Shown one piece after another: positions 18,426 through 35,040 of a DNA stretch of 64,000 nt (positions within the stretch are counted from its first letter, which is position 1; each line of letters opens with the position of its first letter). The notes below the pieces were generated by a model, which was given only the letters and a program-made list of their open reading frames with translations, did no database searches and was not told the origin of the DNA. Origin of the DNA: a bacterium (GTDB taxonomy: Bacteria; Patescibacteriota; Minisyncoccia; UBA6257; Colwellbacteraceae); the NCBI GenBank assembly GCA_021787205.1, contig JAJYME010000004.1, positions 39,063 through 103,062 of the forward strand. Direction: 5' to 3'. The translations under genes were made by a program, and so were the position numbers.

Positions 18426-20693
18426 ATGGAGAACGGAATTAAACACTTGAGTTCTGAGGAGGCAAAGAAAAAGTTGGATTTCTACGGTCCCAATATTTTG
18501 GAGGAAGAGAAGGTGTCCTTATTTATAAAAGTATTAAAATGGCTAGTTTCACCAATTTCGCTCATGCTTATAGCCGCCGCTGCTCTTTCTGAATTTTCAG
18601 GGAAAGATTTTGACTTCTACACCATTGTTTTTCTACTCTTTTTAAATTTTTTCATAACCTACTGGCAGGAAAAGAAGGCGGATACGGCAATAAGGCAATT
18701 GAAACAACGATTGATTACCACAGTTAATGTCCTAAGAGACGGTGATTGGGTTAAGTTAGATTCAAGATATTTGGTACCGGGCGACGCGATAAAGCTCTTT
18801 ATAGGAAACGTAATTCCTGCGGACCTAATCATTGATCAGGCAGATAATTTGATGGTCAACGAATCGACGATAACGGGAGAATCCCTGCCAAAATCAAAGG
18901 GTGCTGGCGAAACTCTTTATTCGGGATCGATTATTGTTACTGGCCGCGTGGTAGCGACAGTCCAATCTACTGGCAGCAAGACATATTTTGGTAAGACCCT
19001 CTCCTCGGTGGAAAGGGTTAAAAAAACCAGCATCCTGGAACAAGACATATTGAGTATTTCAAAGTACCTCTCGATTTTAAGTCTGGTCTGCATTTCAATC
19101 CTGACAATCCTTTTCTTGCTCGCAAAACAGCCGCTGATAGAGATCATGACTCTTGACCTTAGTCTTTTGATAGCCGGAATTCCAATTTCTTTGCCGACGG
19201 TCATGACGCTTATAATAAGTTTCGGAGTCTTGGAGTTGGCAAAAAAGAACGCTATCGTGAGGCGCATCTCGTCATTGGAGGATTTGGCTAATGTAGACAT
19301 CGTCTTAAGCGATAAGACCGGAACTTTAACCAAAAATAAACTTTCAGTCCAGCAAATAATCGGTTATAAGAAAACACCTGATGAGGTTTTGACTTATGCC
19401 TATCTGTCTGCTTACAATGATGCTGACAACCCAATAAGCGCCGCAGTCATTGATAAGTTTGAGAAGTCGGGAATCAGATTGCCAAATGATATCGTTTTTG
19501 GTGACATGGTGCCGGCAGATGGAAACAATAAGAGATCGACCACCGCGGTGACGGTCAATGGAAATAAAAAGGTATTGGCCTTCGGGGCTCCCCAAGTGGT
19601 GGGCGCCCTATGCGAGGAGGGGGGAGATCTTATAGACAAAGACATTGTCAGATCGGCGTCAAAAGGGTGGCGCATGCTTGGAGTCGCTTTAAAGGAAAAC
19701 GAAAAATGGATTTTGGCTGGAAGCTTGGCTATAGCTGATGATTTATGGGAAGATTCGGGTGAGGTGGTATCCTTTTTGCGCGAACAAGGAGTAGCGGTAA
19801 AAATGGTCACCGGCGACAATCGGGCCATTGCCCAATATATAGGAGAGAAATTGGGAATTGAATCTGAAAATGTCTACTACGAGGTTTTTCCTGAAGATAA
19901 GTACAAACTTGTCTTAAGGGAAAAAGAGGGCCATCACATCGTAGCTTCTACCGGAGACGGAATAAATGACCTGCCCGCTCTTAAGGCCGCCAATGTCGGA
20001 GTTGCAGTTCAAAATGCCGTGGACGCCCTGAAGGGAGCCGCCGATATAGTTCTTCTATCGCCCGGATTGGCTGTCATTAAAGATGCCATAATAGAGTCGA
20101 GAAAAATATTTCAGAGACTCTATAACTATTCTATTTACAGAGTTTCGGAAAGTTTCAGATTAATTCTTTCAATATTCGCGCTGGGGCTGATTGTCGGAGC
20201 CTATCCTTTAACTCCAGTCCAGTTGATAATACTGGCGCTGTTAAACGATATCCCAATTATCTCCCTGGCTTTTGACCGGGTGAAAATAACGAATAAGCCA
20301 TCAAGGATACAAGTACTAAGAAGGTTTATCATAAGTAGTAGTTACGGATTGATTGGAGTTGCAAACAGCGTCGCTTTTTTCTTATTGGCTGTCTACGTTT
20401 TTCATATTTCAACACCTATCGTCATGACTCTATTTTTCTTGAAATTGACGATAGGCGGGCATATGTTGATATACGTGGCCCATACAGAAGAAAAATGGTG
20501 GAGGTTCCTTCCAAGTAAGCAGGTAATCTTTGCAACGACGGTTACTCAAGCCATTGCGACAATTCTGGCCCTGATGGGTATTTTTATGGAGAAAGCGCCT
20601 TGGCAACTGGTCTTCTTTGTATGGGTTTGGGCGTTTTTCTGGATGCAGGTTTCCGAGCTATTCAAATTAATTTTCACCAAAGATGGGAAATAA
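18426..20693 (+). CDS. Cation-transporting P-type ATPase (P3A/P2-like, H+/Mg2+ type)
   Basis: DKTGTLT, TGDN and GDGINDLPALK are present across roughly 10 TM helices. Confidence 0.8.
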   Translation: MENGIKHLSSEEAKKKLDFYGPNILEEEKVSLFIKVLKWLVSPISLMLIAAAALSEFSGKDFDFYTIVFLLFLNFFITYWQEKKADTAIRQLKQRLITTVNVLRDGDWVKLDSRYLVPGDAIKLFIGNVIPADLIIDQADNLMVNESTITGESLPKSKGAGETLYSGSIIVTGRVVATVQSTGSKTYFGKTLSSVERVKKTSILEQDILSISKYLSILSLVCISILTILFLLAKQPLIEIMTLDLSLLIAGIPISLPTVMTLIISFGVLELAKKNAIVRRISSLEDLANVDIVLSDKTGTLTKNKLSVQQIIGYKKTPDEVLTYAYLSAYNDADNPISAAVIDKFEKSGIRLPNDIVFGDMVPADGNNKRSTTAVTVNGNKKVLAFGAPQVVGALCEEGGDLIDKDIVRSASKGWRMLGVALKENEKWILAGSLAIADDLWEDSGEVVSFLREQGVAVKMVTGDNRAIAQYIGEKLGIESENVYYEVFPEDKYKLVLREKEGHHIVASTGDGINDLPALKAANVGVAVQNAVDALKGAADIVLLSPGLAVIKDAIIESRKIFQRLYNYSIYRVSESFRLILSIFALGLIVGAYPLTPVQLIILALLNDIPIISLAFDRVKITNKPSRIQVLRRFIISSSYGLIGVANSVAFFLLAVYVFHISTPIVMTLFFLKLTIGGHMLIYVAHTEEKWWRFLPSKQVIFATTVTQAIATILALMGIFMEKAPWQLVFFVWVWAFFWMQVSELFKLIFTKDGK

Positions 20694-21489: not shown

Positions 21490-22095
21490 ATGAAAACTTC
21501 ACGTAAGGTTAAGAAGAATCCAGCTTTGCGAAGCGTTCTTTTAATCATTCCCTGGCTGATCATTATAATAGCTTTCGCGGCTCTGGGGGTAAAAGCGATG
21601 GATCCGGCAATCGTAACCATCCTGATGTTCTCCTTTACCGCCATGTATTTTGTGACAATCCTTTTGATAGAGGAAGACAAGATGAATGATAGGGCGATCG
21701 CCGCCATTTTCAGTTTCGTTGTCGTTATTGGGTTGGGGTTGTGGCAGATAAACAACATCAACAGGGAAGCGGATGTCAAAATGATCCAGATGGAAGATAG
21801 GCTCAACCAGGAAATAACCGATTCGCGCAAATCAACAACCAATCCTATACAATACATTGAATACAAGTGCCTTAAGGGAAAACACCTATCCGGTCTTTTT
21901 TATGAGAACAGCGCGACCGTGACCTTGTCTGACTCGAGAATCTTCAACCTCCAGAGAACGGTATCGGCCGATGGCCAACGTTTTGCAAGTGAGAATGATA
22001 AGACAGTCTTTTGGATCAAAGGAGAAACTGCCAGGTTTGACGAAGGCAGCAAGACTGTTTATGAGGGTTGTGAGATAATAAAAGGACAGCAATAA
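21490..22095 (+). CDS. Membrane-anchored protein with a C-terminal MliC-like (lysozyme-inhibitor family) domain
   Basis: Two N-terminal TM helices precede the C-terminal region C...ATVTL...RTVSADGQRFAS...FWIKGETARF...C. This resembles the MliC pattern (SASGARY ... W.KGDEA ... C) as I recall it. Confidence 0.45.
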   Translation: MKTSRKVKKNPALRSVLLIIPWLIIIIAFAALGVKAMDPAIVTILMFSFTAMYFVTILLIEEDKMNDRAIAAIFSFVVVIGLGLWQINNINREADVKMIQMEDRLNQEITDSRKSTTNPIQYIEYKCLKGKHLSGLFYENSATVTLSDSRIFNLQRTVSADGQRFASENDKTVFWIKGETARFDEGSKTVYEGCEIIKGQQ

Positions 22096-22126: not shown

Positions 22127-23971
22127 TTAAATCAATCGGCGTTTTATAAGAGAGGATATTCTTAGAGAATTCACCAGAGGAAAGAGGTCCGAAATGAGAT
22201 TGTAGGCGGCAGCCCCAGTCGGTCCGATGATTCCAGCGAAGACGAGGATAAGGCCAAGGACGTTCGAGATTCCCCAAATCCAAAAGTCCTGAACGGAAAT
22301 CTGTTTGGCGATCCTCCCGATCCTGATTGATTCGGGGATGGTGGATAAATCATCATTCATCAAGACTATCTGGGCAGAATCGATTGTCCCTTCCATACCT
22401 CTTCCACCCATGGCAATCCCGACATTGGCAATAGATAGAGCGGCCGCATCGTTTATCCCATCGCCAACCATGGCAACCGAACTTTCTCTTTCTAACTCTT
22501 TGATAATCTCAACTTTGTTTTCCGGAAAGAGATTAGCTCGCCATTCGTCGATACCCGATTTTTCAGCAATTAGCTTGGCCGTCTGAGGATTGTCTCCGGT
22601 TAGCATAATGATTTTTCCGATCCCTAGCGAATGGAGGTCAGAAACGGCGTCGGGGGTATTGCTTTTAACTTCGTCAGCGGCCGAGACGAATCCGACGACG
22701 AGGTTGTTTTTGGTAACGAAGGAGACGCTTCGTCCGGAAGCTCTTGCTTCTTCCGCTGCATTTTTCAGACCTGGCGGAATCTCGATCCCTTTCTCTTCGG
22801 CCAGGATTTGTTTGCCAAAGATGATCTGATCTTTCCCGTGTCTGGCAATCACACCTTTTCCACCCATTTCATCAACCGTTTCCGGGATTGGCCACGAGAC
22901 CTTCTCTTCTGTGGCTCGGGCTATGATCGCTTTGGCGATGGGGTGGTTCGACTTAACGCTTCCGATCGCGGCCGTCTCGAGAACATCTTTCTTGGAGAAA
23001 GAGGGTCCGGGGGTTATCTCTGTCACGACCAGCGTCCCGGTTGTCAGCGTTCCAGTCTTATCAAAGACAACCGTATCAACCTTAGCTAGCATTTCCAAGT
23101 GTCTGGCGCTTTTGATGATGATCCCAAGGCTGGAGGCCTTACGAATTGCTTCCAGGTAGGCGAGGGGAATAGCAACTGCGATATCATCGGCGCAGACTAC
23201 CAGGACTATCGCTAAGACGAATTGCAGGTTTCTGGTTATAAGATAAAGGACGGCGGAAATGAATAATATGGAGATAAGATATATCTTTCCAAATTTCTCT
23301 CCCATTGTCTGGACGCTCGGTTTCTGGTTTCTGGCGGACTCAATAAGGCTTATTATCTTTTCCAGAGTGGTGTCTTTGCCGATCCTGGTCGTTCTGACTC
23401 GGATATTGCCTGACTTTATCAAGGTCGAGCTTAAGACGAGATCGCCCTTATTCTTATCAACGGGCAATGATTCGCCGGTGATAGATGATTCATCAACGGC
23501 GGCACCGCCTGAAATAATAATGCCATCAATCGGTATTCTTTCTTCAATTCCGATGATGATTATGTCTCCGATCCTTATTTTCTCAATAGGAGTTTTGACG
23601 AGAGCACCGTTATTCTCGACTAGGGCGATATTGGGTCGGAGCTTCAGGAGACTCTTTATATTTTTTTGAGTCCGATCCTTTGTCACTTCTTCCAGAATCC
23701 TGGCGGCGGCAAGCATTAATTCGATGAAGACCGCGGAAGCCCATTCCCGATTAAGGAGGGCAAAAAAGAGAGCAACCGAAGCCAGAAGGCTCATTGATTG
23801 CCAATCCTTATGACGAAAGGCTTGATAAGCATCCCAAGCAACTGGGGAGAATCCAACGAGGGAGATAGCAACGAGGAGGGTATTGCTGACTAAGCCAGCA
23901 TAGTGAAGAGCCAAGGTACCTATCAAAATCGCGGTAAGGATGATATCTAACCGGCGCTTAAAGGCATTCAT
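22127..23971 (-). CDS. P1B-like (heavy-metal type) P-type ATPase lacking the canonical CPC motif and any N-terminal metal-binding domain
   Basis: DKTGTLT, GDGINDAAAL and TGDN are present, with P1B-like topology. TM6 reads VLVVCADDIAV where CPC/CPx is expected. Confidence 0.7.
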   Translation of the reverse strand: MNAFKRRLDIILTAILIGTLALHYAGLVSNTLLVAISLVGFSPVAWDAYQAFRHKDWQSMSLLASVALFFALLNREWASAVFIELMLAAARILEEVTKDRTQKNIKSLLKLRPNIALVENNGALVKTPIEKIRIGDIIIIGIEERIPIDGIIISGGAAVDESSITGESLPVDKNKGDLVLSSTLIKSGNIRVRTTRIGKDTTLEKIISLIESARNQKPSVQTMGEKFGKIYLISILFISAVLYLITRNLQFVLAIVLVVCADDIAVAIPLAYLEAIRKASSLGIIIKSARHLEMLAKVDTVVFDKTGTLTTGTLVVTEITPGPSFSKKDVLETAAIGSVKSNHPIAKAIIARATEEKVSWPIPETVDEMGGKGVIARHGKDQIIFGKQILAEEKGIEIPPGLKNAAEEARASGRSVSFVTKNNLVVGFVSAADEVKSNTPDAVSDLHSLGIGKIIMLTGDNPQTAKLIAEKSGIDEWRANLFPENKVEIIKELERESSVAMVGDGINDAAALSIANVGIAMGGRGMEGTIDSAQIVLMNDDLSTIPESIRIGRIAKQISVQDFWIWGISNVLGLILVFAGIIGPTGAAAYNLISDLFPLVNSLRISSLIKRRLI

Positions 23972-24094
23972 GGCTTTATTTTAACATAAAAGACCGAGTC
24001 TGTATTGAAGCTGAAAGCGGACGACTGGTTTGACACTCACTTTCGAGAAAGATATGATTATAAAAATAACCTCCCGGGTAGGTATCCCAAAACA

Positions 24095-24532
24095 ATGAAG
24101 AATAACGCAATAAAAAAAATCTTTTCATCTTTTTTGATCGGGTTAATGTTGATTATCAACGGTTTTTGCGTTTTTCAATTTGTCTTCTCGGGAGTATCGG
24201 TTGTCGAGGAAGCCCAGGCGGCGACCATCGAAGCCGCCCCTCAGCCAGCCAACGCTTGCGGGAGAATAAAAGACGAAGGAAATGACCACTCCAATCATCT
24301 AATGATGAGCGAGGCCGGTGAGGCCACTTCGCATTTTTCTTGTTGCGTTGACGGATCACATAGGAACGTCCTGGATGCTGTCAACTTTGCTGAGTTCTTT
24401 CACCAAGTGGCACCGGTAACACTAATTGCCTCGGAGCAGCTTTCTCTAGATCTTGAGGCGAGCCCTATTGTTGGCCAGAGCTTACCAGCCCCCAATCTCT
24501 CGATAGTCAAGACAACGGTGCTGCGCAGATAA
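24095..24532 (+). CDS. Hypothetical membrane-anchored protein
   Basis: The internal ATG start gives MKNNAIKKIFSSFLIGLMLIING (a TM segment). Downstream is a Cys/His-containing soluble region (HFSCCVDGSH). Confidence 0.4.
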   Translation: MKNNAIKKIFSSFLIGLMLIINGFCVFQFVFSGVSVVEEAQAATIEAAPQPANACGRIKDEGNDHSNHLMMSEAGEATSHFSCCVDGSHRNVLDAVNFAEFFHQVAPVTLIASEQLSLDLEASPIVGQSLPAPNLSIVKTTVLRR

Positions 24533-24619
24533 AGTTTAAAATTTGTAGATATAATCCCAGAGCAGCAAATCAATGTTGTGTTTTTGCTGTTCTTTAGAAA
24601 ACAAATATTTAAATTATTT

Positions 24620-26470
24620 ATGTCAAAAAAAATTATAAAAGTGCCGATAAAAGGCATGCATTGCAGATCTTGTGAACTTTTAATCGAGGAAAAAATAAGA
24701 CCGATAAAACGCGTTGTCGATGTCAAAGTCGACCATATGAAGGGGGAGGCAGAAATCTTTTACAAAGAAAACAGCCCCGCTCCCGATATGAAATCAATAA
24801 AAGAAGCCGTAGTCGAAGCCGGTTACGAAATCGGGGTGGCGGAAGAGCTTCCCTTTATTACCAGAAACAAACAGGAATATATCAATCTCGGGATAGCCTT
24901 CTTGGTCTTGATGATCATATACCTGATCCTGAAGACTACCGGTTTGACGGATATAAACCTTAATCCGAGCACTGGAAATCCCGGATGGGGCTTGATGATT
25001 TTGATAGGCCTGGTGGCTGGGTTTTCAACTTGTATGGCGCTTATCGGCGGATTGCTGCTGGGAGTCTCGGCAAAATATGCCGAGAGCCATCCGGAAGCGA
25101 CTCCGGCCCAAAAGTTCCGCCCCCACATATTCTTTGTGATAGGAAGGGTGCTCTCGTACGCATTCTTTGGCGGGCTGTTAGGACTATTAGGAACAGCCTT
25201 TAAAGTCTCTTCGACCATGAATGGAATCATTACCATTGCTGTCGGAGGAGTAATGTTGCTTATGGGCTTACAGCTTATCAATATCTTCCCACGATTGAAT
25301 AAGGTAAAGATAACCTTGCCGAAGGGTGTGGCGCGAAAACTCGGAATAAACCAGAAGGATGGAGAGTATAGTCATAGAAACTCGATCCTAATGGGAGCAA
25401 TGACATTCTTCCTGCCTTGCGGTTTTACTCAAGCGATGCAGCTTTATGCGATAAGCACCGGAAACTTCTTCGCGGGAGCGATGACTATGGGGCTGTTCGC
25501 CTTAGGAACGGCGCCCGGTCTCCTGAGTATCGGGGGAGTCACCTCAGTCGTTCAGGGCAAATTCAAGGAGAGATTCTTCAAGACCGCTGGTTTAGCCGTC
25601 CTATTCTTCGGATTATTTAACGTTAGCAACGGTTATAGCTTGGCCAGTATGAGTTTTGGCGGATATTCTTCTGGTGAAGGGAGAGCGGCGGTGATCAATG
25701 ACAAGAACGTAAAATTGGAAAATGGAGTCCAGGTAGTTAGAATGATTGAAGGCACAGCCGGATATTCACCCAATGCTTTTTCCATTAAAAAAGGAGTTCC
25801 GGTCAAATGGATAATCAACGCCCAAAATCCATATTCGTGCGCCAGCTCGATCATACTTCCTAAGCTGGGGATTTCAAAAAATCTTGAGGCGGGAGAAAAT
25901 ATTATCGAGTTTACTCCTGAAGAAACGGGCAGACTGCCATTCTCCTGCTCGATGGGTATGTATAAAGGGGTGTTCAATGTTTATGACGGAGATGGAGGTT
26001 TGGGTAATGCCCAGGGTGAATCGAAGGATGAAACTTTGGCTGATGACAGCGCTGACAACTACACCGCCCCGACCCAGGCGGCGCCGGTGCCATCGGGATC
26101 GTCATCATGTACTATGGGGGGTTGCGGTTGCGGAGGAGGAGCTCAGAATGTCACAAAAGACACCGAAGACACCCAGGCGAAGGTAGAGGACGGCGTCCAG
26201 ACAATTAACAGCACCTATACCTCGAGCAAATATTTGTCACCAAACTCCTTCAGGGTAAAAGCAGGAAAGACGGTGAAGTTTACGATTGACGTCAAGGATG
26301 ATGGAAGGGGCTGCGGATACGCAATAACCGTTCCCGGATTGTACGATAACATCGTCCCCTTGGTTGGCGGCAAGAAAATTGTCATGCAATTCAAGCCGAC
26401 CGCTCCCGGGAAATACGACATTACCTGCGGAATGGGAATGATCCGTTTCGGAACAATCGTTGTCGAATAA
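24620..26470 (+). CDS. Multi-domain metal-handling membrane protein: an N-terminal HMA domain, a DsbD/CcdA-like polytopic core, and two C-terminal cupredoxin-like domains
   Basis: The HMA domain is GMHCRSCELLIEEKI (MxCxxC). The TM core has paired Cys-containing helices (GFSTCMALIGG, FFLPCGFTQAM). Two repeats carry FSCSMGMYKGVFNVY and YDITCGMGMIRFGTIVV. Confidence 0.55.
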   Translation: MSKKIIKVPIKGMHCRSCELLIEEKIRPIKRVVDVKVDHMKGEAEIFYKENSPAPDMKSIKEAVVEAGYEIGVAEELPFITRNKQEYINLGIAFLVLMIIYLILKTTGLTDINLNPSTGNPGWGLMILIGLVAGFSTCMALIGGLLLGVSAKYAESHPEATPAQKFRPHIFFVIGRVLSYAFFGGLLGLLGTAFKVSSTMNGIITIAVGGVMLLMGLQLINIFPRLNKVKITLPKGVARKLGINQKDGEYSHRNSILMGAMTFFLPCGFTQAMQLYAISTGNFFAGAMTMGLFALGTAPGLLSIGGVTSVVQGKFKERFFKTAGLAVLFFGLFNVSNGYSLASMSFGGYSSGEGRAAVINDKNVKLENGVQVVRMIEGTAGYSPNAFSIKKGVPVKWIINAQNPYSCASSIILPKLGISKNLEAGENIIEFTPEETGRLPFSCSMGMYKGVFNVYDGDGGLGNAQGESKDETLADDSADNYTAPTQAAPVPSGSSSCTMGGCGCGGGAQNVTKDTEDTQAKVEDGVQTINSTYTSSKYLSPNSFRVKAGKTVKFTIDVKDDGRGCGYAITVPGLYDNIVPLVGGKKIVMQFKPTAPGKYDITCGMGMIRFGTIVVE

Positions 26471-26484
26471 AATAATCAAAAAAG

Positions 26485-26688
26485 ATGAAAACAAATTATA
26501 AAATAGAAGGATTGACTTGCGGCGCCTGCGTAAAGCTTGCCTCGAACCGCATTAAAAAGATAGCCGGAGTCCAGGAGGTCGATATCGACATCAAATCTGG
26601 AACACTCAGTATCACAAGCGATGGGGAGTTAAGCGTTGAAAGCCTAAACGAGAGTTTGGCTGACACCGAATATAAAGTAAAAAAATAA
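26485..26688 (+). CDS. copZ: Copper chaperone (HMA domain)
   Basis: A 67-aa protein with GLTCGACV (MxCxxC). Confidence 0.8.
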
Positions 26689-26693
26689 AAATC

Positions 26694-29600
26694 ATGTCGG
26701 AAAGAATAATATTGGATGTTAGGGGAATGCATTGCGCATCCTGTGAAAAAATAATATCCGAAGAGCTGAGTGACCTTGGGGGAATCTCAGATATAAGCGC
26801 CGATGCCAAAAAGGGGAGGGTCGTTGTGACTATTAATGAGGGCGTCACTCAGAACGAGGTCATTAATTCGATAAGAAAAGCGGGATATGAAGCGACGGTG
26901 GCCGAGGTCACTCCGCTCAGCCCGGCTTCAAATGATATAGCGATTCAGATAAAGAAGGGCGGTGAGTCTCGGGATCTCAAGATGAGGTTGAGCTCCCACA
27001 TCGAAGCCGACGGAAAGATATTTGAGAACAATACCTTCGAAGGAAAGATAAAAAACAGCAGACAAGCCGAGTTTGTAATCCCGGAGAATGAGACGGAAAT
27101 CGGGGATTTAGCCGAAAAGCTTAAGACCGCAGTCGATTTTCCCGCCCTGTTTGACTCGGTTTTCAGTGGCGGCAATAAGGAAGCAGCTTCTTCAGGGTTG
27201 GAAAAAGAAAAACAACTCACGACTTCACCGGCTGTCTCAACTGCGGATGAAAATAAGAGGGTTAGCTTGTCGCTTTTTGGAATGCACTGCTCATCCTGCG
27301 CGGCGATCATCGAGCGTTCTATCAAGAAGGTGCCTGGCGTTAAGCAGGCCAGCGTCAATTTTGCCGCTGAAAAAGCAACCGTCGTTTTCGACGGATCGGC
27401 AACAGATACAGGCAGCCTTGTGAAAGCGATCGAGAAAGCGGGATATAGGGCGGAGTTGGTTGATACAAGGGACCAAGATTATGATCGCAAGAAGAGGGAT
27501 GGGGAAATCAAGTCGTATTTGAAGAAGTTTTGGTGGAGCTCCGCTCTAAGCTTGCCCATGCTTTACTTTATGCTTTTCGATTTCTTTGCCATTCCCGGGA
27601 AAGCGGCGGTTCTGCCGTACATAGGTATAATCTCGCTAATTCTGACGATTCCGATCCAATTCGTAATCGGTTCGGGATTCTATAGGGGAATGTATTCATC
27701 TTTAAAAATGAAAACATTCAACATGGACAGCTTGATAGCCATCGGAACATCTACTGCTTTCATATACAGCACCGTAAACTTTTTTACTTATTTTTATAAG
27801 ACGGGTTCGCTTATCGGATTGAACGGAAAGATTCCCGAATTGTATTTTGAAACAGCAGCATTTTTGATAACTTTCGTAATCTTGGGCAAGTGGCTCGAGA
27901 TGAGAACCAAGGGCAGGACTGGAGATGCGATAAAGAAGTTAATGGGGCTCCAAGCGAAGACGGCGAGGGTTTTCCGGGACAGCAAGATCTTAGATATCCC
28001 AATAGAAGAGGTGGTAGCTGGAGACATCGTCATCGTCCGTCCTGGAGAGAAGATTCCCGTCGATGGACAAATTGTAAAGGGTTCTTCCGCCGTTGACGAA
28101 TCGATGATAACTGGAGAAAGCCTTCCCGTTGAAAAGAATGAGGGAGATAAAGTAATCGGAAGCACGGTTAATAAAACGGGAAGTTTTGAATTCAGAGCGA
28201 CTCGCGTCGGTTCTGAAACAGCCTTAGCTCAAATAATCAGATTAATCGAGGAGGCGCAGGGATCAAAGGCGCCAATCCAGGGATTCGCGGATAAGATCTC
28301 AGCAGTCTTTGTTCCGCTAGTGATCGGACTGGCCCTGCTGACATTTATTGTCTGGTACTTTGTCATCGGATCATCGCTGACATTTGCCTTAATGGCCTTT
28401 ACGGCAGTAATCGTTATCGCTTGCCCGTGCGCCTTAGGTCTTGCCACTCCGACATCATTGATGGTCGGAACGGGAAAGGGCGCCGAATATGGAATCTTAG
28501 TCAAAGGGGGAGAGCCCTTGGAGGCTGCCTGCGGAATAGACGCCATAATTTTTGACAAGACCGGAACTCTGACTAAAGGAAAACCGGAGGTGACTGATAT
28601 AGTCCCATTCGAATCATTAGAGGAGGACGAGGTCTTGGAGATTTCGGCGAGCTTGGAGAAACTGTCCGAACACCCTTTGGCGGAAGCTATTTATACTTAT
28701 GCAAACGAAGAAGGTCTTTCTCTTAGGGAGGTGGACGGATTTGAAGCCATCCCAGGTCATGGAGTGAAGGGCAGGGTGGACAACGTCGAATATTATTTTG
28801 GAAATCGCAGGCTGATGACAAACATTCTCGGCCTTCAGATAGAGAAGATAAACCGCAAGCTGATAAAGCTTGAAGAGCAGGGAAAGACAGCGATGATCCT
28901 TGCCGGAAAGGAAAGGATCTTAGGCGCGATTGCCGTTGCCGATACTGTCAAGCCAACCTCGGCGGAAGCGGTGGCTAAGCTAAAGAAGATGGGTATCGAT
29001 ATCTGGATGATTACTGGAGACAATGAGCGCACCGCCAAAGCGATTGCCCAGCAGGTTGGCATCACAAACATATTGGCTGACGTCTTGCCTGAAGATAAGG
29101 CAAACGAGGTAAAGAAATTACAATCGACCGGAAAGAAAGTAGCCATGGTTGGAGACGGCATAAATGATGCTCCGGCTTTGGCCCAGGCAAACTTGGGAAT
29201 AGCAATGGGGTCAGGGACTGATGTGGCTATGGAGGCTGGGGGCATCGTGATCATAAAAAACGATCTTAATGATGTCGTTACAGCGCTTAAGTTGTCCAGG
29301 GAAACCATGGCAAAGATCAAACAGAATATGTTCTTTGCTTTGTTCTACAATGTAATCGGGATCCCGATCGCGGCCAGGGTATTTATGGTTTTCGGTTTAG
29401 TGTTGAAGCCGGAGTTGGCGGGGCTAGCGATGGCTCTGAGCTCGATATCAGTTGTCAGCAATTCGTTGCTACTCAGGTATTTCAAGCCAAACAGAAGGAA
29501 TTATATTTCCCTGATCGCTCCAGTCGTGATGATCCTGATATTTACCTTCGGATTCATTCAATTCGCTAAAACCAGCTCAAACATGGAGAAGCAAGAAATG

Positions 29601-29975
29601 TCTGACAAGACTGCCACTAAGGAATCAAAATCGGAGATAGGCAATTTTATCTCGGGAAAAGAAATGAAAACTAATTTTTCCAACGGCAATCCTAAGATAT
29701 TTGTTGCCGTGAATGATTTTCCATCAACGGTTGTCGCAGCCGAAGGCGTTCTTTATTTGAAAGAGAATGAGATGGTTGTCGGATACGATGAGGCGATGAT
29801 GATGAAAAATGAGGGTCTGATCTCTGGCGTTGGAAGCAGTTTGAAGGATTTCTTCGGATTACCGACTGTGAGGGTAGTCGGGATTTTGGATAAAACCGGG
29901 ACTGTTTTGGACGGTTATCACTTTGTCACTAAAGGAACGCTGGAGAAAATGACCGGTTCTCCGTCTACAAAATAA
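26694..29975 (+). CDS. copA: Copper-translocating P1B-type ATPase with two N-terminal HMA domains and a ~200-aa C-terminal extension of unknown function
   Basis: [10 protein letters not shown] and [10 protein letters not shown] (HMA domains), [17 protein letters not shown] and [10 protein letters not shown] are present. The ORF continues about 200 aa past the last TM helices. Confidence 0.9.
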
Positions 29976-30141
29976 GAGCTTAAAATCGATTGAAACAATC
30001 TGGATCATAAAACAATAAACGCCGTCAAACGGCGTTTATTGTTTTATGGGAAAGCGGATTTGTGATAGTATTAGGATATCAGATAAGGCCCAGGATTCCA
30101 TCTTCGCCCCAATAACACTCCAGAGGCTTAGAAGCGAAACA

Positions 30142-30798
30142 ATGCAAATAAAAACAAGAAACAAAAATGATATCTTGTTGCTTATCGGCGGATTGATTTT
30201 CATCGCGGCGGCAACATATTTAGGCCTCTTAGTCATGAAAGACAGACAACCTGAGCCGGTAGCTTGTACGATGGAGGCAAAGCTTTGTCCTGACGGATCG
30301 TATGTCGGGAGAATGGGACCTGATTGTAAGTTCGAACAATGCCCCGGGGTGAGCAAAAGACGGATTTCAACCGAAGGATGGAAAAAGATGGAGGATGCAA
30401 TCGACGAATTGACCTTCTTATATCCCGAAGACCTCTCAACTAAATATATAAAGGCCTATGACTGGCCACCTAAGGTCCAGGTATTGACTGGCAAATTTGA
30501 TTGTACGGAGGCCGGGTCGGAAACAGCGAGAGCCGGAAGAACATCGAGAGTTTTTGTCGATGATGTCGAATATTGCGTGACCAAAATATCCGAGGGAGCA
30601 GCGGGGAGCATATACACCCAATACGCCTATGCTTTTCCCAAGAATGGAAAAAACGTGATTCTGACTTTTACTACCAGACAAATCCAATGCGCCAACTATG
30701 AGCAGCCGGCGGCAGCAGAATGTTATGCGGAAAGGGAATCCTTTTCGATGGACGACATAGTTAACGGAATGGCGAGCAGCTTAGTTTTCAACAAATAA
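30142..30798 (+). CDS. Hypothetical secreted/membrane-anchored protein
   Basis: The internal ATG start gives a signal anchor LLLIGGLIFIAAATYLGLLV. Downstream is a Cys-containing soluble domain. Confidence 0.45.
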   Translation: MQIKTRNKNDILLLIGGLIFIAAATYLGLLVMKDRQPEPVACTMEAKLCPDGSYVGRMGPDCKFEQCPGVSKRRISTEGWKKMEDAIDELTFLYPEDLSTKYIKAYDWPPKVQVLTGKFDCTEAGSETARAGRTSRVFVDDVEYCVTKISEGAAGSIYTQYAYAFPKNGKNVILTFTTRQIQCANYEQPAAAECYAERESFSMDDIVNGMASSLVFNK

Positions 30799-32577: not shown

Positions 32578-35040
32578 ATGACCAAAGAGGAAGCGCAAAA
32601 ACAAAGTGCGGAGGAATTGACTAAAAACCTTGGGACTTCGGTTGAAACCGGTTTGAAAACCGAAGAGGCGGAAAGAAGACTGGGCGTTGACGGCTTGAAC
32701 AGTCTCCCCAAGGAGGGACACTCTGGTCTCAAGACTTTCTTTAATCAATTCAAGAGCTCAATGGTCTATTTATTGATCGGCTCCAGCTTGGTTTCTTTTG
32801 CCTTGACCGATATTCTGAGCGGCATAGTAATAATGACCATTGTCGTTATTAACGTCGGACTCGGCTTTTATCAGGAGTACAAGTCAGAAAAGTTAGTTGA
32901 GGGACTTTCTAAGTTTGTAAGCAAACAAGCAGTGGTAAGGAGGGACGGGCTAAACCAACTAATTGATTCCAGCCTGATCGTGACCGGAGATATCGTAATC
33001 CTCAAAGAGGGCGACATCGTTCCGGCGGACATAAAAATCACAGAAGTCGACGGTTTGGAGACGAATGAATCCCAGCTCACGGGAGAAACGGTAGCGGTGA
33101 GCAAAAAAGAGAACGATTTAATCTATTCTGGCAGCATCATCGAGAACGGAGGGGGAGAGGGCATTGTCTATGCGACCGGAGAGAATACCGAATTTGGCAG
33201 CATAGCCAGGGTTTCAGCAGCCATAAAGCGCGAAACCAGATATGAAAAATCATTGAATGAGTTAAGCTTTTTCTTGGTTAGGATAGTGGGAGCGATTTTA
33301 GCCATAGTCTTTATGGTCAAGATGTGGCTTGATTGGGGCTCTTTCAATCTCATAGAGGTGTCTTTGTTCATAATCGCGATGGCGGTAGCGACCGTCCCCG
33401 AGAGTTTGCCGGTAATCGCCTCCATCTCCCTTTCTAATGGCGCCTTGAAGCTTGCCAAGAAACATGTTGTCGTAAAGCACCTGACTTCTGTAGAAGACCT
33501 TGGTAATGTCACCATGCTTTGTACGGATAAGACGGGAACGTTGACGGAAAACAAAATGACGATCACCGGGATCGTTTCTGAAGATCAGGAGCTTTTTATG
33601 TCTTTGGCTTACGCCTCAGTCGAGAAAATAGGAATCGGGAGAAAGAAATATCAGAATGCTTACGACGAAGCCTTCAATGCTTATGCGACTAAAAAGACGA
33701 AAGAATCGGTTGACGAAAGGATGAGGACAATAAAAGAATTCCCATTCGATTCCGATGCCAGGAGGAGAAGAGCAGTCATTTATGATAAAGTCGCTAAAAA
33801 ATACTTTTTGGTGGTTATCGGCTCTCCGGAGACTTTGCTGCAGATTGCGGAGACCGAAAGATCGGAGCAGTATAAAGAAATATTAACTGAAGAGGGGAAT
33901 AAGGGATTGAGACACCTAGCGTTGGCTTACAAAGAGGTTGCTTATGACGATAATTTCGACATCATAAAGAGCGAGTCGGGAATTGATTTTCTTGGTTTTG
34001 CCACTTTTACCGATCCTCTAAGGGCGACATCGCAGCAGACGATAAAGGAAGCTGAGGCTTTAGGAATTTCGATAAAGATATTATCCGGGGACAGCAAGGA
34101 AGTTTCGGAATATGTCGGCAAGGAAGTCGGATTGATTTCCGGAAATCAAAAGGTATACACCGGAGACGAGCTTTTCGAAATGTCGGCGGACGAATTCAGA
34201 CGGGTAATAAATGAAAACAACGTTTTTGCTCGCGTGAATCCGGAGCAGAAATACAGGATCATAGCCGCCCTGAAGGAAAACAACATTGTCGCTTACCAAG
34301 GAGATGGTATCAACGACGCCCCGTCCTTAAAGTTAGCCGATGTCTCAATCGCAGTCAGTTCGGCCACCGATGTGGCAAAGGAAAGCTCGGATATAGTCCT
34401 TCTAAAGAGAAATCTGGAGGTCGTAATTGACGGGATAAAGTATGGAAGATCGATTTTCGTAAACATAAACAAATTCATAAGGCATACAATGATAAGCAAT
34501 TTTGGCAACCTTATTGCCTTATCAATCCTATTCCTTCTGTCCTCGGACCTACCCATGCAGACCATCCAAGTCCTTTTGCTGACAGTCATCGCTGATATCC
34601 CGATGATTGCCATATCAACCGATTCGGTCGATAAGGGAGAGATCATAAGGCCGGAGAAGCAAGACATAAGAGGTCTGATGTCAGTCTCTTTGGTCTTGGG
34701 AATACCGACGGCGGCAATGGATCTGGGGTATTTCTTCTTGATTCGAAATGAAGCCCCGAGAATCCTCCAGACAAGTTTGTTTATCTTTTTTGCCCTTACC
34801 GGTCTGGTTGTCTTTTACGCGATAAGGACGAAGAGACATTTTTGGAGGTCGAGGCCGTCGACCCCGATAAACATCGCATTCGTGGCAGCTTTCCTGATAT
34901 CTGTTCTTATAACCTATTTGCCAATCTTTCAACGCTGGTTCGGATTCGTATCGCTTCAAGCGAGTGCGATTATGATCATCACCATTTTCACGATCGGATA
35001 TCTTTTCTTAGCCGATCTGATTTATTCTAAGACAAAATAA
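32578..35040 (+). CDS. Cation-transporting P-type ATPase (P2-like)
   Basis: CTDKTGTLTENKM, LSGDSKEV (a TGD variant) and [11 protein letters not shown] are present. Confidence 0.8.
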   Translation: MTKEEAQKQSAEELTKNLGTSVETGLKTEEAERRLGVDGLNSLPKEGHSGLKTFFNQFKSSMVYLLIGSSLVSFALTDILSGIVIMTIVVINVGLGFYQEYKSEKLVEGLSKFVSKQAVVRRDGLNQLIDSSLIVTGDIVILKEGDIVPADIKITEVDGLETNESQLTGETVAVSKKENDLIYSGSIIENGGGEGIVYATGENTEFGSIARVSAAIKRETRYEKSLNELSFFLVRIVGAILAIVFMVKMWLDWGSFNLIEVSLFIIAMAVATVPESLPVIASISLSNGALKLAKKHVVVKHLTSVEDLGNVTMLCTDKTGTLTENKMTITGIVSEDQELFMSLAYASVEKIGIGRKKYQNAYDEAFNAYATKKTKESVDERMRTIKEFPFDSDARRRRAVIYDKVAKKYFLVVIGSPETLLQIAETERSEQYKEILTEEGNKGLRHLALAYKEVAYDDNFDIIKSESGIDFLGFATFTDPLRATSQQTIKEAEALGISIKILSGDSKEVSEYVGKEVGLISGNQKVYTGDELFEMSADEFRRVINENNVFARVNPEQKYRIIAALKENNIVAYQGDGINDAPSLKLADVSIAVSSATDVAKESSDIVLLKRNLEVVIDGIKYGRSIFVNINKFIRHTMISNFGNLIALSILFLLSSDLPMQTIQVLLLTVIADIPMIAISTDSVDKGEIIRPEKQDIRGLMSVSLVLGIPTAAMDLGYFFLIRNEAPRILQTSLFIFFALTGLVVFYAIRTKRHFWRSRPSTPINIAFVAAFLISVLITYLPIFQRWFGFVSLQASAIMIITIFTIGYLFLADLIYSKTK

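Follow-up and report, generated by a model that had tools for sequence, protein, structure and literature searches.

A copper-handling locus in a bacterium of the Patescibacteriota (family Colwellbacteraceae; GenBank assembly GCA_021787205.1, contig JAJYME010000004.1) places, next to copZ and copA, a gene that fuses an HMA metal-binding domain, a membrane core with a pair of cysteines and two cupredoxin domains in one protein. What does such a protein pass across the membrane: copper, or reducing power for copper handling? We addressed this in a window of 64,000 nucleotides (the whole stretch of DNA analysed, contig positions 39,063 to 103,062 of the forward strand), in whose numbering all coordinates are given. 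A first-pass annotation had described the locus from the letters alone, and every feature it placed was found, by open reading frames, Pfam domains and motifs, where it had put it.

The cop operon and its control region

By ORF coordinates the cop operon is tightly packed in the order small gene, fusion gene, copZ and copA; copZ starts 14 bp past the end of the fusion gene, and the gap between copZ and copA is 5 bp.

24030-24058, + strand: candidate sigma-70-type promoter, TTGACA - 17 nt - TATGAT, upstream of the small gene (consensus match)
24066-24085, no strand assigned: palindrome ATAACCTCCCGGGTAGGTAT with a GC core, just 3' of the -10 hexamer, candidate CsoR-type operator
24095-24532, + strand: small gene, 145 aa (ORF list)
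24620-26470, + strand: fusion gene, 616 aa plus stop (ORF list; ATG start shared with homologs), with modules in the order HMA, TM0, DsbD_2 core, Cup1, Cys-rich linker, Cup2
26485-26688, + strand: copZ, 67 aa (ORF list; Pfam HMA)
26694-29975, + strand: copA, 1093 aa (ORF list; TIGR01511)
29496-29972, + strand: non-canonical C-terminus of CopA, a ninth hydrophobic helix (residues 935-960) and an orphan soluble domain of ~135 aa (hydropathy)

Motifs and Pfam agree with the initial reading of copZ (GLTCGACV; Pfam HMA, E = 1.4e-12) and of a copA with two N-terminal HMA domains. CopA scored 630.7 bits with TIGR01511 (cutoff 397) and has the complete set of P1B-1 motifs (CPC 577, N-x6-YN-x4-P 878, P-x6-M-x2-SS-x5-N 906 and DKTGT), by which it is a Cu(I)-exporting P1B-1 ATPase. 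Its C-terminal extension is conserved in the CopA of at least 23 related loci, and the C-terminal domain found no relative in Pfam or among PDB sequences. This domain is predicted to lie outside the membrane, as are the Cup domains of the fusion, and may contact them.

The small gene encodes a membrane-anchored protein whose N-terminal helix carries 'GFC'; it also has a CC pair (C83-C84) and an SPP motif, ends in a basic tail and matched nothing in Pfam or NCBIfam. Of 81 loci, 18 have a syntenic counterpart ahead of the fusion; the counterparts share 12-27% identity, with the CC pair as the sole invariant feature. The protein, with 15 relatives among 1.84 billion representatives, is a lineage-restricted accessory.

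The TTGACA/TATGAT site matches 11 of 12 consensus positions and is the top promoter-like site in 23900-30200, making it a candidate near-consensus promoter of the operon. The palindrome that follows is imperfect and, judged by its sequence, may be a CsoR-type operator; its core, ACCTnnnGGGTAGGTA, is unique within the window, though 34 of 100 shuffles yield at least one match at up to two mismatches. A similar box lies ~30 bp 5' of the small gene in one related locus (L002), and boxes of the form TACC-N7-11(GC-rich)-GGTA are 18-fold enriched 5' of the fusion in related loci. We found no csoR gene in the window. Among relatives, csoR is often immediately 5' of the fusion and copA immediately 3': 28 of 72 related loci have csoR 5' of the fusion in the same orientation (all eight ORFs tested were PF02583), and about 70 of 80 genome loci have a co-directional copA 3' of it, the synteny that the initial description had proposed to look for. 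copZ is in the same place in most two-Cup relatives. The synteny, the csoR neighbours and the CsoR-like boxes bear out a copper-handling role beside copZ-copA.

Modules, ligands and topology of the fusion protein

Against Pfam the fusion scored 38.3 bits for HMA (cutoff 24.8; residues 8-70), 110.7 bits for DsbD_2 (cutoff 24.9; residues 126-332) and 75.5 bits for Cupredoxin_1, matched in two stretches (cutoff 27), all scores far above chance. The AF2 model (mean pLDDT 80.5) has seven helices, TM0 and a six-helix core. Pfam, conservation and the model together uphold the three modules recognized at the outset, namely the HMA domain, a DsbD/CcdA-like core with a Cys pair and two Met-rich cupredoxin-like domains.

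24626-24835, + strand: HMA domain, predicted cytoplasmic, residues 3-72, with GMHCRSC (C15, C18)
24869-24937, + strand: TM0, residues 84-106, an extra helix predicted to join the inside HMA to the N-out start of the core (AF2 helix, hydropathy)
24986-25642, + strand: DsbD_2 core, six helices, residues 123-341 (Pfam PF13386)
25031-25033, + strand: C138 in TM1
25418-25420, + strand: C267 in TM4, 'LPCG'
25709-25984, + strand: Cup1, CupA-type cupredoxin, residues 364-455, ligands C407, C443, M445, M447
26108-26131, + strand: linker motif C497-x4-C502-x-C504
26180-26464, + strand: Cup2, CupA-type, residues 521-615, ligands C565, C603, M605, M607

Across 120 full-length homologs, conservation reaches 99-100% at the TM Cys pair, at the HMA CxxC and in both C...CxMxM sets, with M607 as the exception (76%); the Cys pair and the metal ligands on which the initial reading depended are thus conserved. 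The HMA domain is of the Atx1/CopZ type, with a PF00403 match above the curated cutoff, a beta-alpha-beta-beta-alpha-beta fold and a GMxCxxC loop whose C15 and C18 are each 99% conserved. Lysine and arginine in loops 3-4 and 5-6 average 6.7 and 4.0, against at most 0.5 in the outward loops. TM0 is found in the fused forms (CPR, Acetoanaerobium) and is missing in Deinococcus and Streptomyces, where HMA is a separate gene. Because of the helix count, the positive-inside rule and the presence of TM0 only when HMA is fused, the HMA domain is predicted to be cytoplasmic and the Cup domains extracytoplasmic.

The PF13386 match covers profile positions 2-198 of 199 (E = 1e-31) and was repeated with the isolated core. 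In the AF2 model TM1 is broken at 135-137 and TM4 at 265-267, and C138 and C267, the paired membrane cysteines that had been pointed out, lie at these breaks. Four phyla share C138, P266-C267-G268 and M290 without exception. Close CPR homologs conserve M139, M212, M273, H157 and H169, the last four of which reach 90% or more in a diverse CPR set; outside CPR, His and Met near the core Cys are partly lost. The proposed likeness to DsbD/CcdA held at the level of the Pfam family, but PF02683 (DsbD_TM) gave no match on the window fusion at E up to 0.01 or on its core at E up to 10, and the core profile recovered neither CcdA nor DsbD among solved structures. Many homologs have weak precomputed PF02683 matches, and the Acetoanaerobium homolog passes that profile (36.8 bits, cutoff 27.1). 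Since this homolog passes and the window protein does not, homology to DsbD/CcdA is plausible at the superfamily level only. Aligning the core halves as a 3+3 inverted repeat with hhalign gave a probability of 0.4%; such a repeat is suggested by the geometry of the model alone, with a broken helix at each Cys.

The C-terminal part contains FSCSMGMY (residues 441-448) and ITCGMGMI (residues 601-608). Cup2 aligns with Cup1 at 33% identity (E = 4e-14) with the ligands in register; it matches CupA weakly (E = 0.08), again with the ligands in register, as are those of Cup1 with CupA. The cupredoxin fold of the Cup domains superimposes on 4F2E/4F2F, and Cup2 is modelled at pLDDT 85-97. Across the 120 homologs, C565 of Cup2 is conserved in 100%, C603 and M605 in 99% and M607 in 76%. 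By their sequence, both domains carry the binuclear Cu(I) set of CupA, with S1 formed by the Cys pair and S2 by Cys and two Met, the motif defined in PMC5552934 and PMC5646241. A type-1 (blue) copper site was rejected, as neither Cup domain has the conserved His of the ligand set His...Cys...His...Met; the plastocyanin and nitrosocyanin profiles matched far under their cutoffs.

Between the Cup domains, the linker (residues 460-508) is disordered, acidic and rich in Ser, Thr and Pro (pLDDT < 50). It contains a CxxxxCxC motif, overlooked in the first-pass annotation. Conservation of this motif among close homologs is 93-97%, and of 33 long forms with two ligand-regex matches, 20 have it; it may be an additional Cu(I)-thiolate site.

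As with S. pneumoniae CupA and the CopA MBD (PDB 4F2E, 2MRY, 4F2F), the domains are encoded next to CopA in a cop operon. CupA consists of one domain on a single N-terminal TM anchor; it faces the cytoplasm and feeds a cupredoxin-type CopA MBD (PMC7558416), whereas in the fusion family one or two Cup domains come after seven helices, with a predicted location outside. The window CopA, unlike that of S. pneumoniae, has two HMA domains and no cupredoxin MBD; of 64 CopAs from related loci, 63 carry HMA and the remaining one a Cup domain. Standalone CupA-like genes (a TM helix, then KKEK) exist in some related loci.

We are thus highly confident that the fusion consists of a cytoplasmic HMA with CxxC, TM0, a six-helix DsbD_2 core with Cys in TM1 and TM4 and two outer CupA-type domains with binuclear Cu(I) ligands, and that it is transcribed together with copZ and the gene for a Cu(I) P1B-1 ATPase, copA.

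Distribution of the family and its database name

The architecture had been called unusual, which did not survive a genome scan: there were at least 590 confirmed matches, among the matches listed nearly all in Patescibacteria, of which the fusion is a staple. The core-Cup module, with HMA fused or as a neighbouring gene, also occurs in Clostridia, Deinococcus and Streptomyces. HMA is an obligate partner of the core: in CPR and Acetoanaerobium it is part of the same chain, and in Deinococcus and Streptomyces it is encoded directly 3' of the core gene, adjacent to or overlapping it. This wide spread differs from the narrow range of CupA, reported from only a few streptococci (PMC7558416, PMC5646241). 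The suggestion that the protein belongs to no characterised family was right in that we found no experimental study of the fusion family in the literature, and wrong for the C-terminal repeats, which are of the characterised CupA / CopA-MBD type.

Among the closest described systems are the COG2836 proteins (HMA + DsbD_2 + DUF2318), inferred to be in the Firmicutes CsoR regulon (PMC4938975). They share with the fusion the joining of HMA to a DsbD_2 core and the association with copA, and the fusion may share their predicted CsoR control, but the third module of the fusion is one or two CupA-type Cupredoxin_1 domains, and DUF2318 was not matched in the window fusion. The COG2836 family is likewise experimentally uncharacterised.

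NCBI and JGI label homologs "sulfite exporter TauE/SafE". These names are the sole support for a sulfite or organosulfonate exporter; PF01925 gave no match on the whole fusion (E up to 0.01) or on the core (E up to 10), and every flanking module and neighbour gene is copper-related. We rejected the name and regard the exporter reading as effectively refuted, its chance of being right as negligible.

Possible passage of copper or electrons through the core

The fusion probably moves copper, or reducing power for copper handling, across the membrane. The role first suggested for it, a coupled reductase/chaperone or an exporter accessory with perhaps Cu(II)-to-Cu(I) handling, may still apply. Our preferred reading, held tentatively and with less than even confidence, is that the fusion serves the cop operon as an accessory in copper detoxification and acts as a transmembrane Cu(I)-thiolate relay. 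Cu(I) from CopZ or from the fusion's own HMA would pass by ligand exchange to the membrane pair C138/C267, which would open in turn to either membrane face, as in DsbD-type cores, and then on to the Cup domains outside and to the linker with its Cys motif. These would keep Cu(I) at the cell surface, off the cytoplasm and surface thiols, and may also take Cu(I) exiting CopA. Each station of a DsbD-like Cys cascade would then have been swapped for a Cu(I)-chaperone module.

Several observations fit the relay. Both end modules are Cu(I) hand-off folds with fully conserved ligands (120 homologs; four phyla), and the S2 Met ligands, relevant only to Cu(I) binding, are invariant (M607 apart). HMA is the constant partner of the core, where characterised DsbD-type cores use thioredoxin. 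The HMA and Cup domains are placed on opposite membrane faces by helix count, loop charges and TM0, and soft ligands line the core (M290 across phyla; further Met and His in CPR). The context is one of copper: the packed operon, the promoter and palindrome, copA downstream, csoR upstream, the CsoR-like boxes and the CsoR regulon of COG2836. The relay is, however, passive, with no evident energy source, and seems redundant with the ATP-driven CopA adjacent to it; not all His and Met by the core Cys are kept outside CPR, and the direction of transfer is not readable from sequence. By homology, moreover, the core sits among thiol-disulfide electron transporters (PF13386; PF02683 in Acetoanaerobium), and we know of no DsbD-type Cys pair demonstrated to carry metal.

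That homology favours a close rival, which we hold possible though doubtful, in which the DsbD_2 core sends reducing equivalents outward and keeps reduced, or re-reduces, the Cys of the outer Cup domains and linker. Once reduced, these Cys could pick up Cu(I) that CopA has exported, or could convert Cu(II) to Cu(I), an activity that CupA shows in vitro; HMA would sense cytoplasmic Cu(I) and gate by it, or be the proximal CxxC electron donor. The layout of the fusion mirrors that of DsbD, in which a TM Cys pair is followed by a C-terminal outer domain with a Cys pair. As in DsbD, CcdA and ScsB, where the TM1 and TM4 Cys are essential, the polytopic core has one Cys in each of these helices at mid-membrane breaks, is N-out/C-out and precedes an outer domain bearing Cys. 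Unlike in DsbD/CcdA, the core is DsbD_2 (PF13386) and not DsbD_TM (PF02683), HMA replaces thioredoxin as the cytoplasmic partner, a Cu(I) cupredoxin stands outside in place of a thioredoxin fold, and the TM1 Cys ('STCM') lacks the neighbouring Pro typical of CcdA/DsbD. CupA reduces Cu(II) through C74/C111 and needs a re-reductant for these Cys, the source of which is stated to be unknown (PMC5646241, PMC7558416). Copper tolerance has been linked to DsbD and ScsB (PMC7785015), and CcdA genes adjoin the Streptomyces version. Outward electron transfer nevertheless leaves unexplained why HMA, and not thioredoxin, is the constant cytoplasmic partner. A thioredoxin-fold domain or gene, sought in the fusion and cassette, was not found, the partners being HMA and cupredoxin domains; the missing PF02683 match, even at E up to 10, and the missing TM1 Pro also speak against it.

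The Cup domains could instead act as a surface sink, taking Cu(I) expelled by CopA while the core serves as an anchor or docking scaffold, HMA docks CopA or CopZ and nothing crosses the core. In CopC-CopD/YcnJ, CusF and CueP, an outer beta-sandwich copper domain joined to, or working with, a membrane transporter accepts copper at the outer face, and CusF and CueP accept Cu(I) for Gram-negative CopA. The fusion resembles these systems in having an outer copper-binding domain with a membrane partner, but is unrelated to them in fold and ligands; YcnJ imports copper, and CusF and CueP are soluble and not joined to a Cys-pair core. The fusion near-obligately adjoins copA, and many CopAs have their own predicted outer C-terminal domain as a possible docking partner. 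The number of Cup domains, one or two among the forms, and the extra Cys-rich linker of some forms fit a capacity role. A mere anchor is hard to reconcile, however, with the two buried Cys at helix breaks and with P266, G268 and M290, invariant across four phyla, and CupA itself manages with one TM anchor (PMC7558416). We therefore consider a sink unlikely.

A relay running inward is more improbable still. Here metal caught by the outer Cup domains, Cu(I) or else Hg(II)/Ag(I), would travel via the Cys pair to HMA in the cytoplasm; MerP-MerT-NmerA (mercury) and CopC-CopD/YcnJ (copper) are precedents. In MerT/MerP and MerTP fusions, thiophilic metal is relayed without ATP between an HMA CxxC, paired Cys in the membrane and one more Cys site, and the fusion shares this logic of ligand exchange; it is also formally like YcnJ, an importer made of an outer domain and a permease. 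merB lies near the Deinococcus version. The membrane part of MerT/MerP is, however, non-homologous, with HMA outside and transport inward, and NCBIfam MerTP touches the HMA region of the fusion only (31 bits, cutoff 180). The window cassette has no merA, and a gene transcribed together with a Cu(I) efflux pump under csoR-type control should be switched on by excess copper, a condition in which import would be futile.

Returning to the outward Cu(I)-thiolate relay, we propose, a shade more cautiously than for the relay itself, that a core of the DsbD superfamily has been repurposed for Cu(I) instead of electrons, and that HMA, Cys pair and CupA-type domains may form a self-contained, ATP-independent cascade. 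If so, the repurposed core would be a new class of copper translocator, working alongside CopA in the majority of Patescibacteria and here and there in Clostridia, Deinococcus and Streptomyces, and its outer domains would provide the first demonstrated case of a CupA-type Cu(I) site at work outside the cytoplasm.

Gene content of the copper cassette and its surroundings

The four genes of the cassette lie where the first reading of the sequence had placed them, separated by gaps of only 87, 14 and 5 bp:

24095-24532, + strand, small gene encoding 145 aa
24620-26470, + strand, fusion gene encoding 616 aa
26485-26688, + strand, copZ, an HMA protein by Pfam
26694-29975, + strand, copA, encoding 1093 aa

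The ATG at 24620 is the start codon in 116 of 120 homologs of the fusion. The first-pass annotation had read the fusion as three modules (an HMA, a DsbD/CcdA-like cysteine-containing core and two cupredoxin-like repeats). Pfam agrees with this reading, placing HMA at residues 8-70, DsbD_2 (PF13386) at residues 126-332, with a score of 110.7 bits where 24.9 is the cutoff, and Cupredoxin_1 in two stretches; the sequence motifs quoted in support are present in the window proteins. CopA has two HMA domains and the ATPase domains by Pfam, passes TIGR01511 and possesses the complete set of transport-site motifs (CPC, N-x6-YN-x4-P and P-x6-M-x2-SS-x5-N) that we take to be the signature of Cu(I) P1B-1 ATPases.

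In the small protein, which has a membrane helix at its N-terminus, neither Pfam nor NCBIfam recognised a domain. A word-index search returned only the protein itself, and exhaustive phmmer/HMMER searches found 15 relatives among 1.84 billion representatives, none of them annotated. Syntenic counterparts, found in 18 of 81 loci, are 12-27% identical and have in common only a CC pair (usually PCC) that never varies, an SPP motif and a charged tail. The position of the small gene is taken by csoR in many other lineages. The small protein is a real, fast-evolving and lineage-restricted accessory.

We noted several peculiarities of CopA, among them a C-terminal extension:

29496-29972, CopA residues 935-1093, a ninth hydrophobic helix past the canonical last transmembrane helix, followed by a soluble domain of ~135 aa

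The soluble domain is predicted to be extracytoplasmic, and we know of no P1B ATPase in the literature whose C-terminus forms a domain on the outside. The extension is kept in at least 23 related loci of Patescibacteria (CPR), often with a second partial repeat, and G71, M78 (in 'EAxMMK'), F95-G96, D114 and H117 are invariant in it. A profile of 23 of these sequences matched nothing in PDB or Pfam, a word-index search was empty, and a single-sequence AF2 model was unusable (pLDDT 44.5). The extension also contains a second literal DKTGT (residues about 1063-1077, window about 29880-29925), the catalytic one being at residue 621; the 'TGT..D.YHF' core around it is conserved in relatives, and the resemblance is probably due to chance. 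Between its two N-terminal HMA domains CopA carries an insert of ~115 aa (residues 73-190, window 26910-27263), which is 25-45% identical in a subset of related CopAs and has no Pfam match.

The genes around the cassette include the following:

18426-20693, + strand, P-type ATPase of 755 aa with Cation_ATPase_N
21490-22095, + strand, membrane-anchored protein with an MliC (lysozyme-inhibitor) domain by Pfam
22127-23971, - strand, divergent P1B-type ATPase of 614 aa, passing TIGR01525 and TIGR01512
30046-30798, + strand, 250-aa protein just downstream of copA, with an N-terminal membrane helix and a Cys-rich stretch, CTMEAKLCPDGSYVGRMGPDCKFEQCP
32578-35040, + strand, P-type ATPase of 820 aa with Cation_ATPase_N and Cation_ATPase_C

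Counting copA, the window has four P-type ATPases in a stretch of about 17 kb. The 614-aa ATPase has 'CAD' at residue 260 in place of the CPx motif and lacks an N-terminal metal-binding domain. The 250-aa protein had no Pfam match, and none was seen at that position in the other loci examined individually.

Metal sites and topology of the fusion protein

We compared the two C-terminal repeats with proteins of known structure. [quoted passage not shown] The two repeats share 33% identity (E = 4e-14), and repeat 2 matches CupA weakly (E = 0.08), with the alignment in register. CupA, presented in the literature as a streptococcal oddity, holds a binuclear Cu(I) cluster, with C74/C111 as site 1 and C74/M113/M115 as site 2 (PMC5646241, PMC7558416). 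This ligand set is reproduced exactly by C407/C443/M445/M447 of repeat 1 and C565/C603/M605/M607 of repeat 2. The repeats are cupredoxin-like as first proposed, though not generic cupredoxins: the sequence match and the ligands assign them specifically to the CupA type. A blue-copper electron-transfer site was rejected, because neither repeat has a conserved His in the alignment of 120 homologs.

A protein search gave 4556 matches at E up to 0.001, and conservation was scored in the top 120, all full-length, 53-66% identical and with the same three Pfam domains as the fusion (one homolog, P0092, had no HMA match). Conservation reached 99-100% for HMA C15/C18, membrane-core C138 and C267, C407/C443/M445/M447 of the first CupA-type domain (Cup1) and C565/C603/M605 of the second (Cup2), 93-97% for the linker motif C497-x4-C502-x-C504, and 76% for M607 of Cup2. 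Both core cysteines were also invariant in a more diverse core alignment (46 sequences), and C138, P266-C267-G268, M290, C407 and C443-x-M-G-M were invariant across CPR, Acetoanaerobium, Deinococcus and Streptomyces. The possibility, raised in the first-pass annotation, that homologs might have neither a conserved cysteine pair nor conserved ligands in the repeats did not materialize, since both are conserved. The invariant buried cysteines also contradict the idea that the protein is an external sink for Cu(I) with an anchor that is inert, which we consider unlikely. Comparison of the two halves of the core by hhalign gave no signal of an internal repeat.

The model of the fusion has seven membrane helices, TM0 (residues 84-106) and then a six-helix core, in which TM1 breaks at 135-137, directly before C138, and TM4 at 265-267, at C267. 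Because the HMA domain begins at residue 3 without a signal peptide, it must, we infer, be cytoplasmic. Basic loops mark the cytoplasmic side of a membrane protein (the positive-inside rule). In the mean of 120 homologs, the predicted cytoplasmic loops 3-4 and 5-6 have 6.7 and 4.0 K+R, respectively, and the predicted outside loops at most 0.5; the segment after TM6 is acidic. By this rule the basic loops predict an N-in, C-out protein. Independently of loop charge, TM0 is present where the HMA is fused (CPR, Acetoanaerobium) and absent where the HMA is a separate gene (Deinococcus, Streptomyces), the protein then beginning directly at TM1; such a pattern is expected if the membrane separates the HMA from the CupA-type domain. 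We thus predict that both CupA-type domains of the fusion are extracytoplasmic, in contrast to CupA itself.

The fusion is a real, well-conserved, copper-related protein, every part of which is of a known kind, and at the domain level it belongs to HMA, to DsbD_2 and to the CupA-type cupredoxin class. It falls outside CupA proper, from which it differs in anchor, membrane face and the metal-binding domain of its partner, and, by profile, outside DsbD/CcdA (PF02683). A COG2836 group, HMA-DsbD_2-DUF2318, inferred to be part of the Firmicutes CsoR regulon (PMC4938975), differs in the third module, and the fusion is not a member of it. MerTP was rejected, as its match was confined to the HMA region. 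The uncharacterised variant here is the combination of modules together with the predicted outer location of the CupA-type site; literature searches found no description of the fusion or of CupA-type domains in Patescibacteria.

Distribution, synteny and control

The architecture, described as unusual in the first-pass annotation, is common: scanning species-representative genomes for two conserved peptides gave at least 590 confirmed matches. The best 80 of these are essentially all from Patescibacteria (Parcubacteria, Microgenomates, Saccharibacteria, Gracilibacteria, Berkelbacteria and WWE3). Two size classes exist, of ~450 aa with one CupA-type domain and ~600 aa with two, and 20 of 33 long forms (those matching the ligand regex twice) have the linker Cys motif. 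Some one-domain loci have, between the fusion and copA, a standalone Cupredoxin_1 gene of 119-128 aa (L066 7440-7799; also L067, L068, L070 and L080), whose product (119 aa in some loci) combines a TM helix, with KKEK or similar after it, and a CGMNMFHG/CGMGMYHG motif. Judged by their sequences, these Patescibacterial proteins look like true homologs of CupA that face the cytoplasm; unlike in the CupA system, however, their CopA partner has an HMA rather than a cupredoxin metal-binding domain. One CopA (locus L047) has an N-terminal CupA-type domain.

Beyond Patescibacteria, HMA-TM0-DsbD_2-Cupredoxin_1 occurs in Acetoanaerobium noterae (Clostridia), where an HMA-CopA comes directly after it, and two plasmids carry the module in split form, with the separate HMA gene coming after the DsbD_2-Cupredoxin_1 gene:

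L087 3971-5218, DsbD_2-Cupredoxin_1 with an adjacent/overlapping HMA gene, Deinococcus sp. QL22 plasmid
L088 3959-5304, DsbD_2-Cupredoxin_1 with an adjacent/overlapping HMA gene, Streptomyces mirabilis pI (strain from creek-bank soil)

Both have metal-resistance surroundings: merB, a two-component system and DUF4396 in Deinococcus, and a P1B ATPase, a MerR-type regulator, CcdA genes and a BlaI/CopY-M56 pair in Streptomyces.

NCBI labels the fusion family "sulfite exporter TauE/SafE family protein". Neither the whole fusion nor its isolated core matched the TauE profile, and we rejected this assignment; given the profile searches, there is next to no chance that the name is correct. Taxon labels may also mislead, since many TPA 'binchicken' MAGs with a typically Patescibacterial cassette bear the titles 'uncultured Gammaproteobacteria', 'Pseudomonadales' or 'Bdellovibrionales' (L008, L019, L027, L031 and others) that look unreliable. 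In two loci (L065, 'Patescibacteria group', and L073, Gracilibacteria), the fusion and copA are split into several short ORFs under translation table 11, for which an alternative genetic code would presumably be a better fit than pseudogenes.

The first-pass annotation had called for a search for the fusion beside copA in other genomes. In about 70 of 80 genome loci copA follows the fusion on the same strand, and 5 of the other 10 end at a contig edge. Of four independent CPR genomes inspected one by one, three have the order small gene-fusion-copZ-copA, and the remaining one (L005) has csoR upstream and no separate copZ. In 28 of 72 loci a CsoR-family gene precedes the fusion in the same orientation (PF02583 was confirmed in 8 of 8 tested upstream ORFs). 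Boxes of the form TACC-N7-11(GC-rich)-GGTA, which we take to resemble published CsoR operators, have a density of 0.165 per kb in the 1.2 kb upstream, compared with 0.009 per kb in the remainder of these loci. At the level of the family there is good support for copper-responsive co-expression with the efflux pump. This co-expression contradicts a relay working inwards for copper uptake, which we regard as very improbable.

In the window itself, TTGACA-17-TATGAT at 24030-24058 ranks first among sigma-70-like sites over 6.3 kb. It is immediately followed by the palindrome ATAACCTCCCGGGTAGGTAT, which alone is not statistically exceptional, as 34 of 100 shuffles had a match at up to 2 mismatches. 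Copper-responsive control here would be based on this imperfect candidate box. No csoR gene was found within the window, the best tblastn match (E = 0.38, at 38.8 kb) being inside a 698-aa membrane protein.

Possible mechanism and significance

The identities of the modules, the topology and the membership of the fusion in the cop operon are firm. What passes through the core we propose tentatively. Among known systems, the fusion may in its working come closest to a cross between CupA and a DsbD-type cascade. We favour, with less than even confidence, a thiolate relay in which Cu(I) would move from the HMA via C138/C267 to the outer CupA-type domains, because two modules out of three are folds dedicated to handing on Cu(I) and have their ligands intact, among them the S2 methionines, which play no part in redox chemistry; because the constant cytoplasmic partner, fused or encoded next door, is an HMA and not a thioredoxin; and because the core cysteines are accompanied by Met/His residues (M290 in all phyla, others within CPR). 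A close rival, possible though somewhat less probable, is that the core carries reducing equivalents, keeping the outer cysteine sites reduced or resetting them after Cu(II) reduction. Such a reductase would fit what the core is homologous to (the Acetoanaerobium relative scores above the PF02683 cutoff) and its DsbD-like layout, and would address what re-reduces CupA-type cysteines after Cu(II) reduction, a question left open in PMC5646241; it leaves the HMA domain unexplained, however. Relay and reductase, the two leading hypotheses, are sharply testable.

The family is widespread and mis-annotated, and not surprising in kind. Since the misleading name "sulfite exporter TauE/SafE" has propagated in databases, a copper-related correction would touch thousands of entries. 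The exact CupA Cu(I) site is found in hundreds of Patescibacteria genomes and three other phyla. It is always joined to a two-cysteine DsbD-type core, has an HMA partner and is predicted to face outwards from the membrane. A core that moves Cu(I) would make the fusion a new kind of copper translocator; one that moves electrons would answer the question of CupA re-reduction. In addition, the fusion would show how monoderm bacteria with reduced genomes handle copper once CopA has expelled it.
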